From: Escherichia coli
GTDB lineage: Bacteria; Pseudomonadota; Gammaproteobacteria; Enterobacterales; Enterobacteriaceae
Length of the DNA: 64,000 nucleotides
Assembly: GCF_050920415.1 (NCBI RefSeq)
Contig: NZ_CP169309.1
Direction: 5' to 3' (one strand)
Both the position numbers and the translations under genes were made by a program. This document shows, in pieces, positions 21,335-31,737 of this stretch (position 1 is its first letter; every line of letters starts with the position of its first letter). The notes under the pieces are model-generated. The model was not told the DNA's origin. It was given only the letters and a program-made list of their open reading frames with translations, and ran no database searches.

Positions 21335-21387
21335 GGGCGGCAGAGCAGTCACGGAGTAAAACTGATACCGCCAAACGTCACCAGAAA
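21335..21387 (-). ncRNA. dicF: DicF small regulatory RNA (ftsZ-targeting sRNA)
   Basis: Minus-strand sequence TTTCTGGTGACGTTTGGCGGTATCAGTTTTACTCCGTGACTGCTCTGCCGCCC matches the 53-nt DicF followed by a T-run; about 190 bp upstream of dicB as in Qin. Confidence 0.8.
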
Positions 21388-24964: not shown

Positions 24965-25831
24965 TCAGGCTGCCAGATCATTGTTTCCGATGGAAGCATA
25001 ATAAGCTTTTTCTGCTTCTGCCGGAGGAGTATGGCCCAGCCTTCCCAGCAATCGTCGATTGTTATACCAGTCCACCCACGTGAGTGTGGCCAGTTCCACT
25101 TCTGCACGGTTTTTCCAGCTCTTACGGTGTATTACCTCCGCTTTGTAAAGACCATTGATGCTCTCAGCCATCGCGTTGTCATACGAGTCGCCTGTACTCC
25201 CTGTTGATGCCAGCAGTTTTGCTTCTTTTAGTCGCTCCGTATAGGCCAGTGACACATACTGAGAGCCTTTATCGCTGTGATGGATGGTGCCAGACGGACG
25301 ACGGGCCCACAACGCCTGCTCCAGCGCATCCAGCACGAATGTCGTTTCCATAGACGATGAGACCCGCCACCCCACGATGTATCCGGCAAACACATCAATG
25401 ATGAACGCCACATAGACGAAGCCCTGCCATGTGCTGACGTAAGTAAAATCAGCCACCCACAGCTGGTCAGGACGTTCTGCCACGAACTGACGGTTTACGC
25501 GGTCACCTGTGGCAACGGTTTTCCGGCTGACGGTAGTGCGGACCTTTTTACCCCGGAGAACACCGGCAAGTCCCATAACCGCCATGAGGCGCGCCACTGT
25601 ACATCTGGCCACCCTGATTCCTTCCCGTAACAACTGACGCCAGACTTTACGCACACCGTACACCTGATGATTTTCATCGTATACGCGCTGTATCTCTCTC
25701 TTCAGCCAGTCATCGCGCTGCGCACGGGCACTGCGTTTATCAGGATGATGCCGCTGCTGCTGACAATGGTAATACGTTGACGGGGCAATATGCAGTTCAC
25801 TGCATACCGGTCCGACCCCCGTACTGCTCAC
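24965..25831 (-). CDS. IS3-family transposase OrfB (DDE integrase domain)
   Basis: 288-aa ORF with DDE catalytic region; expressed as OrfAB by -1 frameshift. Confidence 0.85.
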   Translation of the reverse strand: MSSTGVGPVCSELHIAPSTYYHCQQQRHHPDKRSARAQRDDWLKREIQRVYDENHQVYGVRKVWRQLLREGIRVARCTVARLMAVMGLAGVLRGKKVRTTVSRKTVATGDRVNRQFVAERPDQLWVADFTYVSTWQGFVYVAFIIDVFAGYIVGWRVSSSMETTFVLDALEQALWARRPSGTIHHSDKGSQYVSLAYTERLKEAKLLASTGSTGDSYDNAMAESINGLYKAEVIHRKSWKNRAEVELATLTWVDWYNNRRLLGRLGHTPPAEAEKAYYASIGNNDLAA

Positions 25832-25852
25832 GCAGCTTATCCAGCAGTGGCA

Positions 25853-26179
25853 TTATTTTTTCCAGAGGCGGTCGAACTCCGCCTTCGCAAAATAAGCGGA
25901 AGCCTGGCGAAGGATATCGTTACTGCGGCGCAGTTCACGATTTTCACGTTCCAGCTCTTTCAGACGCTGACGTTCAGCGGTGGTGAGCCCACCATCACCG
26001 CTCCCGGTATCCCTCTCATGCTGGCGAACCCAGACACGCAGAGTCTCTGGCGTACAGCCAATCTTTGGAGCAATGGAACAAATTGCCGCCCATTGTGAGT
26101 CATATTCGCCCTGACTTTCCAGAACCATACGAACTGCGCGTTGACGGACTTCGGGGGAAAAACGAGTATTTTTAGTCAT
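25853..26179 (-). CDS. IS3-family transposase OrfA (HTH and leucine zipper)
   Basis: 108 aa, [19 protein letters not shown]...; recognised IS629-type OrfA. Confidence 0.85.
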
Positions 26180-29398: not shown

Positions 29399-30097
29399 TT
29401 ATACACCTAAATGCGCTAGATCGCTAACGTCTGAATATGGGCAGCTATGGGAGGTAGTCCAGTTTTCAAGGGTCACGTTAGGAGTATAGTCGACCACGAA
29501 CTGACCATCATTTTCAGGATCTTCCCGTCGATGATAAACATTGAGTGTAAATAGGCCTGCATATTTCGCGAGCATATGTTCAATGGTCTCTCTGCTCTTG
29601 AAAAAGTTCGCTTTAAGAACCTCTAACGGAACCTTACGAGAGCGGGCTTGGGCAAAAACCCACGCGTAAGCCGGATCAAAATAGACGTAATTCAGTGCTA
29701 CCTGATAACCAGCCTTCAGGGCCAGATCAAAGTTTCTCTCCGCAATACCTATACTGGAGAAAGTAGAGTCCATAACAATGGGATAGCCTTCAGATAGCGC
29801 TTTTTTGTAGATAAAATCGACCATTCTGGAGGCAGGTCTCTGATAGTCCACAGAGTTCTCTTCATTGTAGTAGGGGAACCACCAGCGAAAATCATCAGCA
29901 TCAATTCGAACAATGTTTGTGATGCCATGTTGTTCTAAAAGACGATTTAAGAGCTCGGTTTTACCTGCAGCAGGCGAACCAGCCATAAACAGGACGTGCT
30001 TGGCATTGGCATTTTTGTTTGCTGTTACGTAACTATAAACGTAAGGGCGAATTGCCTCACCAAACTCAGGCAGTATGGTTTCAAGTTCTTTTTTCAT
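29399..30097 (-). CDS. zeta-toxin-like P-loop kinase (cassette B, gene 1)
   Basis: 232-aa ORF; Walker A FMAGSPAAGKTEL followed about 20 residues later by RIDADDFR, the arrangement seen in zeta/PezT/AvrRxo1-type kinases; low-GC context. Confidence 0.6.
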   Translation of the reverse strand: MKKELETILPEFGEAIRPYVYSYVTANKNANAKHVLFMAGSPAAGKTELLNRLLEQHGITNIVRIDADDFRWWFPYYNEENSVDYQRPASRMVDFIYKKALSEGYPIVMDSTFSSIGIAERNFDLALKAGYQVALNYVYFDPAYAWVFAQARSRKVPLEVLKANFFKSRETIEHMLAKYAGLFTLNVYHRREDPENDGQFVVDYTPNVTLENWTTSHSCPYSDVSDLAHLGV

Positions 30098-30261: not shown

Positions 30262-30600
30262 TTACTCGGTCTGTATGCGGTTCATTGCTGAAGTCGCCAG
30301 TTGCGGGTAAATCTGCATCTCTGCGCCGTTTAAGATTCGCGTATTTACGCGCAAGCGCTCGATGGCTTCATTTTGCTGGTGGCTTTCCTTCCTCGCGGCT
30401 ATTCTAGCTATCTGATTGGCTGCTATGGCCTTTGCCGCTGTCATGGAATGCGCCAGAGTCTTATCCGTCATCATTACACGCTGCGTTTCCAGCATGCTGG
30501 AATGATCTCTTTTTGTTGTTCTTGAAGAAGAACTCTTATTCTTCGGTATATCATTTTGACAGGGGGCAGTGTAAGTATCCCTGCAAAACGAACCATTCAC
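30262..30600 (-). CDS. hypothetical protein (weak call)
   Basis: 112-aa ORF; the C-terminal 70 aa look protein-like, the N-terminal part may be spurious. Confidence 0.3.
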   Translation of the reverse strand: MNGSFCRDTYTAPCQNDIPKNKSSSSRTTKRDHSSMLETQRVMMTDKTLAHSMTAAKAIAANQIARIAARKESHQQNEAIERLRVNTRILNGAEMQIYPQLATSAMNRIQTE

Positions 30601-30610
30601 TTTAACAGAT

Positions 30611-30907
30611 ATGTCAATTTCCGCTCATCGTTCAAAGCGGACTAGAAGGTTAGCTTGCGTCGGACTTGGCGTTTTTAAAGAAGTGCTGGTGGTGACTGGT
30701 TGTTGTGTTCCATTTCTACAGAACAAAATCACAGAAACTATTCCCAATAGTTTTATTGAATCAATGATGAGACAGCCTCATATTTATCAGGACTGGTGTA
30801 CGTCCAATACAGGAGGTTGTCGTGCTGGTTCTCAAATGTGCGCTCGCTATTGCGGCTGTAATGGCAATTTATTGTCTTGCTGTTGTTCTTATGGATCGCC
30901 TTTCTGA
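30611..30907 (+). CDS. hypothetical Cys-rich small protein (weak call)
   Basis: 98-aa ORF; C-terminal 45 aa contain 9 Cys (CRAGSQMCARYCGCNGNLLSCCCSYGSPF); no RBS evaluated. Confidence 0.25.
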   Translation: MSISAHRSKRTRRLACVGLGVFKEVLVVTGCCVPFLQNKITETIPNSFIESMMRQPHIYQDWCTSNTGGCRAGSQMCARYCGCNGNLLSCCCSYGSPF

Positions 30908-31122
30908 TTGATTTTATATTGGCGAGGTGACGGGAGTTAAGTAGGATTGCTGCGGGTGCTTGAGGCTATCTGTCTCAGGCATGAATACCAACGGCAGATA
31001 GAGAAAAGCCCCAGTTAACATTACGCGTCCTGCAAGACGCCTAACATTAATCTGAGGCCATATCTATGACTTGCACACGTAGGTTAGCCTCTTACGTGCC
31101 GAAAGGCAAGGAGAAGCAGGCT

Positions 31123-31353
31123 ATGAAGCAGCATAAGGCGATGTTAATCGCCCTGATTGTCATCTGTTTAACTGTCATTGTGACGGCACTGGTAACGAGG
31201 AAAGATCTCTGTGAGGTACGAATCCGAACCAGCCAAACGGAGGTCGCTGTCTTCACAGCTTACGAACCTGAGGAGTTAGAGACCAGGCGAGGGAGAAATC
31301 CCTCGCCACCTCTGATGAGTCAGGCATCCTCAATGCACCCACACTTAACTTGA
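31123..31353 (+). CDS. hokD: Hok/Gef-family type I toxin (HokD/RelF-like) with C-terminal extension
   Basis: MKQHKAMLIALIVICLTVIVTALVTRKDLCEVRIRTSQTEVAVFTAYEPEE matches the Hok family; the expected stop after EPEE is TTA here and the ORF continues 25 codons; GC-rich hairpin GGCGAGGGAGAAATCCCTCGCC within the extension; in frame with an upstream mok-like ORF from 31066. Confidence 0.8.
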   Translation: MKQHKAMLIALIVICLTVIVTALVTRKDLCEVRIRTSQTEVAVFTAYEPEELETRRGRNPSPPLMSQASSMHPHLT

Positions 31354-31737
31354 TTCGGCGGGTTTATTTTATCTGTAAATATTTTTATAAAAATAATGCC
31401 CACACACAGCATAAAACAAAAAGTATCACAGATAAAAAAGGAGCGTAATGTGCAGATTTGTTGTTTTCCATATTTACTCGCTTTAACATAATCAATATTG
31501 ATATGGTTGTTATTTCGGTGGTTTCAAACGAGATATTATGGTGATCTGGCAAATTTGCATAACATTAAAATTTAATTTATCTAATCGCTTTTAATAATAA
31601 GCGTTGTGTTTTATCCCAGCAATCTGTTGTTTGATTTTTATTTCATTAATGTAGGGGCTTTACACTGGAACCAGTTTATTTATACTTTATACGCCAGCCT
31701 GAACAACTGGCACCTGCTGCGCCAGCAGAGACAACCG

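Follow-up and report, generated by a model that had tools for sequence, protein, structure and literature searches.

The question raised by this locus is whether a Hok-family toxin gene that has lost its stop codon has been inactivated or has become a functional variant of the toxin. The gene lies in a stretch of 64,000 nucleotides of Escherichia coli (contig NZ_CP169309.1, assembly GCF_050920415.1), hereafter called the window. A sequence-only reading had proposed that the first 51 residues are of HokD/RelF type, that the stop codon was replaced by TTA and that the protein thereby acquired a 25-residue extension running through the downstream hairpin to position 31353. The elements concerned are the following.

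31123–31353 (+): hok reading frame with lost stop, 51 Hok residues and a 25-residue tail (ORF list, alignments, PHROG 251).
31276–31278 (+): former stop codon, TAA to TTA, with T at 31277 (alignments A1 and A2, codon counts).
31066–31353 (+): mok-like leader reading frame of 95 aa, in frame with hok and sharing the lost stop (ORF list).

The hok reading frame has 76 codons. Its listed translation consists of the 51 residues MKQHKAMLIALIVICLTVIVTALVTRKDLCEVRIRTSQTEVAVFTAYEPEE (31123–31275), the HokD-type part, joined to the 25-residue tail LETRRGRNPSPPLMSQASSMHPHLT, in agreement with the proposed extension. The HokD-type part shows 94–98% identity to HokD and prophage Hok proteins, and all of the close homologues carry PF01848 (Hok/Gef toxin family). 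The profile PHROG 251 ('MokW-like host killing') matches residues 1–50 over its whole length (profile positions 1–50 of 50, E = 1.3e-30), which places the tail outside the family; the tail alone gave no protein family match in a search of NCBIfam. The extended protein scores 44.3 bits against NCBIfam NF007279 and a 51-aa control scores 45.9 bits, the cut-off being 73; as the control also falls below it, the shortfall does not come from the extension. The proposed HokD/RelF character of the first 51 residues is thus borne out by the translation, the identity to homologues and the PHROG 251 match. Termination after about 50–52 codons, as in Hok genes, is not found here, the frame running on to 76 codons. 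In sequence and layout alike, the locus is one of the hokD-type prophage hok/sok cassettes.

Codon 52 (31276–31278) is TTA in the window and TAA in the aligned intact hokD loci, which are those of strains 357900, 503025, MS 119-7, ETEC4088, O157:H7 86-24 and K-12. A single A>T change at 31277 accounts for the difference (alignments A1 and A2), so that the replacement of the stop is confirmed by comparison with other strains. No in-frame stop is read between 31276–31278 and 31351–31353; the readthrough path crosses a GC-rich hairpin (31286–31307) and the fbi element (31328–31340) before reaching TGA at 31351–31353. The ATG at 31066, which precedes the hok start by 19 codons in the same frame, opens the mok-like frame of 95 aa, so the lost stop is common to both. 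A mok in another frame, as in plasmid R1, was considered and rejected, the sole upstream ATG of the window being this one; by published coordinates the R1 mok lies in a different frame from hok, whereas here the two are in frame. Homologues of the mok-like frame with an intact stop are 70 aa long and are annotated as Hok family toxin or regulatory protein; this form and the canonical 51-aa form are each present in at least 1000 contigs.

The sequence-only reading had itself pointed out that Hok genes at this prophage position might carry the extension naturally. The IMG/VR collection was scanned with the 15 nt that precede codon 52 and the 6 nt that follow it, with the following counts for the codons covered.

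Codon 52 TAA: at least 120 loci.
Codon 52 TGA, still a stop: 7 loci.
Codon 52 TTA: 3 loci, identical to the window.
Codon 52 with the first base changed: 0 loci.

A stop is therefore present in at least 127 loci, against a sense codon in three, all with the same allele; about 98% of the loci sampled keep the stop. Among complete E. coli genomes the allele is carried by three of 5,426. These codon counts reject a natural extension at this position. The closest prophages, those of MS 119-7 and ETEC4088, which also have zeta-toxin neighbours, carry an intact 156-nt hokD (51 aa).

The three complete genomes, ARS-C301, MB07081 and MFDS1022581, originate from Texas, the Galapagos and Korea, and 551 bases around hok are 100% identical in them. 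RefSeq annotates the gene in all three as a pseudogene with 'missing C-terminus', because codon 52 is TTA and the frame has 76 codons. The exact 95-aa product occurs in 105 index blocks of public assemblies. The public protein collection lists it under names that include 'phage maintenance protein' and 'hok/gef family protein [E. coli M863]', and an entry identical to the 76-aa product exists there as well. Strain M863, of Escherichia clade I, also holds the allele. Flanking regions vary among the copies, some having a different downstream Q gene or an IS upstream. The cassette DNA itself is identical or one nucleotide apart among copies and has accumulated no secondary decay. A sequencing or assembly artefact could in principle produce a difference of one base. 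Nevertheless, the same sequence stands in the three complete genomes, in three prophages of IMG/VR and in assemblies, both draft and metagenomic, of separate projects, and because so many independent assemblies hold the identical allele this explanation can be set aside with near certainty. The allele is thus already known: it is in the databases, it is already flagged as a pseudogene and it has a direct experimental analogue (see below).

The cassette appears as a mosaic in the alignment. Its 5' half is that of MS 119-7 except for one leader position, its 3' half is that of strain 357900, and in both of these strains hokD is intact, with 51 aa. No difference other than the stop-codon base is private to the window, which indicates that TTA is the derived state. 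TTA is also found on another 5' background (P0125). Other codons replace the stop elsewhere: a TCA (Ser) allele in a K-12-like relBE-hokD context is represented by 34 index blocks, of which 24 contigs were read, and was confirmed in DNA (for example at positions 1501–1791 of locus L141, GCA_902848235.1), and CAA (Gln) and GAA (Glu) alleles also occur. These other alleles (TCA, CAA, GAA), and the TTA on the other 5' background, arose independently. Natural stop-loss hokD proteins include P0001, P0002, P0003, P0144 and P0151; with the canonical 3' end, readthrough gives a tail of 45 residues (P0144). All stop-loss alleles are rare relative to the canonical 51-aa and 70-aa forms.

Apart from the lost stop, the hok/sok cassette is recognisable, with promoter, tac, mok-like leader, candidate Sok, 3' stem-loop and fbi. 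Its sense-strand elements are listed here.

30919–30947 (+): putative hok promoter, with -35 TTGGCG (30919–30924), a 17-nt spacer and -10 TAGGAT (30942–30947).
30954–31128 (+): hok mRNA leader, from tac to the hok start codon (Rfam RF01794).
30954–30965 (+): tac element, 5' end of the hok mRNA, pairing with fbi (minimum-free-energy fold).
31286–31307 (+): 3' stem-loop directly behind the former stop, with a 9-bp GC-rich stem, GGCGAGGGA-GAAA-TCCCTCGCC, homologous to the terminal stem of the R1 hok mRNA (folds, conservation).
31328–31340 (+): fbi element, pairing with tac, within the readthrough frame (minimum-free-energy fold).

The promoter site was called by the promoter scan in strain 503025, where the -10 box is TAGAAT (9/12 matches); with TAGGAT (8/12) the window copy lies below the scanner threshold and was not called. 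The TAGGAT box is shared by the window and MS 119-7, and TAGAAT is found in 357900, 503025, ETEC4088 and O157 86-24. The TAGGAT form may make a weaker hok promoter. The leader matches the full RF01794 model (1–157) with 108.1 bits against a gathering score of 59 (E = 1.3e-23). This Rfam family is named 'sok antitoxin' and matches the hok strand; the hit therefore covers the hok mRNA leader in sense and not the antisense Sok RNA.

Folding of 30954–31372 gives a minimum-free-energy structure (-160.6 kcal/mol, z = -7.8) with a 12-bp pairing of 30954–30965 with 31328–31340. Across 104 unique cassettes tac and fbi are nearly invariant and the pairs of the 3' stem are kept, with G-C/G-U/A-U variation at 31290:31303. 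Little covariation was found for tac/fbi and the 3' stem in this set, the positions being almost invariant, and conservation is what supports them. The base change at the former stop also touches the RNA: U31277 pairs with G31314 (U.G) in place of the A.G mismatch found in 99 of the 104 unique cassettes, extending the lower stem and stabilising the full-length fold by 4.2 kcal/mol.

On the opposite strand, two elements are proposed.

31003–31075 (-): candidate Sok RNA, about 70 nt (fold; ends predicted).
31081–31109 (-): putative sok promoter, with -35 TTGCCT (31109–31104), a 17-nt spacer and -10 TAACCT (31086–31081), read by eye.

The sequence-only reading had considered that Sok could not be delimited. 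The fold predicts an approximate minus-strand placement from about 31075 to 31003. The candidate has a single-stranded 5' tail, a long hairpin (31057–31010) and a UUUU tract, and it spans the mok start codon; it folds with -32.4 kcal/mol (z = -4.7), and none of 200 shuffled sequences folded as well. This shape, with ends predicted from the fold, fits that of the R1 Sok RNA, which is 64 nt long and has one stem-loop and an unpaired 5' tail (PMC1635323). The putative sok promoter, with a 7/12 match, is below the scanner threshold in the window and was not called, and its segment is invariant among full-length cassettes (alignments A1 and A2). The most variable part of the nearly invariant cassette is 31059–31080 (+), which includes the mok start and the predicted target of the Sok 5' tail; at least three sequence types are found there among the close relatives aligned. 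From these sequences, the variation would fit Sok/hok pairs with differing specificities in different prophages. Both the RNA control elements and the antitoxin side (Sok) appear intact in the window.

One further element of the 3' region is altered.

31347–31372 (+): degenerate intrinsic terminator after fbi (terminator scan, hairpin energy).

The 5' arm of its hairpin has changed from AACCCGC to AACTTGA (AACCCGC-TTCG-GCGGGTT to AACTTGA-TTCG-GCGGGTT), which creates the TGA at 31351–31353 and so ends the tail after 25 residues. The hairpin has an energy of -3.8 kcal/mol in the window, against -11.8 kcal/mol in the intact form. No intrinsic terminator after fbi was called in the window; in strain 503025, AACCCGCTTCGGCGGGTT followed by a T-run was called. 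The terminator lesion is shared with strain 357900, in which the stop is intact, and is found at four of 127 loci in IMG/VR. The loss of the terminator and the additional U.G pair could displace the site at which the prophage hokD mRNA is processed at its 3' end.

The gene order around the cassette is that expected in a lambdoid prophage. Genes for Cro/CI, YdaT, a helix-turn-helix protein of the replication region, DUF977 and a zeta-toxin-family protein (on the other strand) precede hok, which is followed by a small hypothetical gene, DUF968 (ydfU-like), RusA and antiterminator Q. An IS3-family element with two transposase ORFs (24965–26179, -) is inserted in the helix-turn-helix replication-region gene; it contains the Rfam ALIL frameshift pseudoknot (25781–25898, -). 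This insertion, of about 1.3 kb, is absent from all three RefSeq genomes with the same hok allele, so that the window represents a fourth strain. The insertion and the lost terminator fit a decaying, cryptic prophage. The presence of a DicF small RNA gene (21335–21386, -; 76.7 bits) indicates a Qin-like dicBF immunity region in the prophage.

Several other features lie in or next to the cassette. The zeta-toxin/PezT-like ATPase gene (29399–30097, -) constitutes a second toxin module of the prophage region, immediately adjacent to the hok cassette; upstream of it, on the same strand, lies a 77-codon ORF of unannotated function (30262–30495, -) that could encode its antitoxin. Just upstream of the hok promoter, a 29-codon hydrophobic ORF, VLVLKCALAIAAVMAIYCLAVVLMDRLSD (30822–30911, +), stands behind a strong AGGAGG ribosome-binding site. 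About 30 of 139 related loci retain this ORF with conservative substitutions, and strain 357900 has a frameshifted copy; neither NCBIfam nor PHROG gave a match. From its sequence it may encode an unannotated small membrane protein. Within hok itself, the Tyr47 codon in CTTACGAA (31258–31266, +), 12 nt ahead of the lost stop, is unaltered and stands in a TACG context, which we take to be the TadA recognition motif. A-to-I editing recodes a late tyrosine to cysteine in the hokB, hokC, hokD and hokE mRNAs (bioRxiv 10.1101/2025.08.07.668861).

The closest experimental evidence on the effect of such a change comes from the R1 hok gene. The R1 hok/sok system resembles the window in its tac/fbi end-pairing, its mok leader, its Sok with 5' tail and hairpin and its stem-loop after the stop. 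When R1 hok was subjected to saturating mutagenesis in the absence of Sok, the loss-of-function suppressors obtained included six substitutions that remove the stop codon; the resulting protein is 17 aa longer, and processed mRNA was still present in two of the mutants (PMC9841398). An 8-aa C-terminal FLAG tag also abolishes the toxicity of R1 Hok (PMC9841398). These laboratory mutants are the direct analogue of the natural allele in the window. By analogy with them, the loss of the stop here probably abolishes or strongly attenuates toxin activity, making this a pseudogene allele rather than a new functional variant. Of the two outcomes originally envisaged, inactivation is thus favoured over a functional variant, on the rarity of the allele, the RefSeq flag and the R1 precedent. 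Against loss of function stand the merely distant similarity of R1 Hok to HokD and to the Hok of the window and the length of the tail, 25 aa here compared with 17 in R1. The wide occurrence of the allele on differing flanks, the lack of secondary decay in its cassette and the possible shift of the 3' processing site also speak against it.

Two mechanisms are likely, possibly acting at once. The A>T change at 31277 has destroyed the stop codon common to mok and hok, and a tail added to the Hok part beyond its membrane helix would abolish toxicity, as shown for R1 Hok and extended here by analogy. The second mechanism would act at the level of the mRNA. The terminal stem of R1 halts 3' trimming of the processed hok mRNA (PMC9841398, PMC1635323), and G345 and C358 have been placed in this stem (PMC9841398). 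In the R1-type sequence the stop is at nt 330–332, the terminal stem at about 343–359 and the readthrough stop at 381–383; being after the terminal stem, the latter lies beyond the processed end. The layout of the window matches, with the former stop at 31276–31278, the stem at 31286–31307 and the new stop at 31351–31353. The hok mRNA would be translatable only after 3' trimming to the stem-loop 31286–31307, and the processed form would end near 31308–31310, falling short of the new stop at 31351 by about 40 nt. Since the new stop would lie beyond the processed end, the processed hok mRNA would be a non-stop message. Non-stop messages are handled by trans-translation, which leads to tmRNA tagging and proteolysis. 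Ribosomes would thus be expected to reach the 3' end of the hok message without meeting a stop, with tmRNA tagging and degradation of the peptide, and in doing so to melt the protective stem and expose the message to 3' exonucleases. The same idea could explain why the stop-loss mutants of R1 hok are not toxic.

It is improbable, though arguable, that the allele is a functional length variant whose extended product (76 aa, or 95 aa if read from the mok start) still acts as a membrane toxin. The Hok core is intact and 94–98% identical to active HokD forms, the RNA control elements are all preserved, the allele is widespread in cassettes free of further decay, and 42 of 45 natural Hok sequences tested were toxic (bioRxiv 10.1101/2025.08.07.668861). 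However, both stop-loss mutations and a short C-terminal tag abolish R1 Hok toxicity (PMC9841398), and the stop is kept in nearly all of the loci sampled (see above). Moreover, the tail, which lacks a protein family match, is translated 3' UTR; its sequence is conserved because of the RNA pairing in the stem and fbi.

We also consider it unlikely that selection favoured inactivation of the toxin and that the cassette has been retained for its Sok RNA as a form of immunity. Sok could then act against related hok genes, whether these arrive on phages or plasmids or are further copies within the same genome. In agreement with this, the sok side appears intact, genomes with the allele hold two to four hok-like places, independent stop-loss alleles recur in nature and the allele persists across mosaic prophages. 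On the other hand, neutral persistence explains the same data; the strong variation of the Sok target segment (31059–31080) between loci points to narrow specificity and not to broad cross-protection. In these data neutrality, hitch-hiking and selection cannot be told apart as causes of the persistence of the allele. A more speculative idea, to which we give very little credence, is that the stop-loss is kept precisely because the processed hok mRNA becomes a non-stop message, making the cassette a sensor of trans-translation failure. The tmRNA-tagged product would then normally be destroyed, and the toxin would build up only if ribosome rescue or proteolysis broke down or were overloaded, as under phage attack or translation stress.

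The preferred reading, a toxin disabled by the loss of its stop, can be set against the known systems of the family. HokD (RelF) and the prophage 'mokW/hokW'-type cassettes have the same leader, 3' stem and fbi as the window and likewise lie ahead of the small hypothetical gene, DUF968/ydfU, rusA and Q. The window differs from them in codon 52 and the tail, in the destroyed terminator hairpin and in its TAGGAT in place of TAGAAT. While K-12 hokD lacks the whole upstream control region, the window keeps the full upstream regulatory region. Natural hok loci disabled by mutation are also represented in K-12 by hokA, hokB, hokC, hokD and hokE; Pedersen and Gerdes reportedly found in 1999 that the K-12 hok loci other than hokD are disabled by IS insertions or point mutations. 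Compared with these inactivated loci, the lesion in the window is the loss of a stop codon in an otherwise complete cassette.

The locus is most likely a loss-of-function hok allele in a decaying lambdoid prophage. By itself the allele matters little, as a natural counterpart of the laboratory hok stop-loss suppressors. It bears on annotation, the same DNA being called a 95-aa 'phage maintenance protein', a 76-aa 'Hok/Gef family protein' or a pseudogene. For the biology of the family, it suggests that the type I toxin genes of prophages are sporadically disabled by single-base changes that leave the RNA control elements intact.
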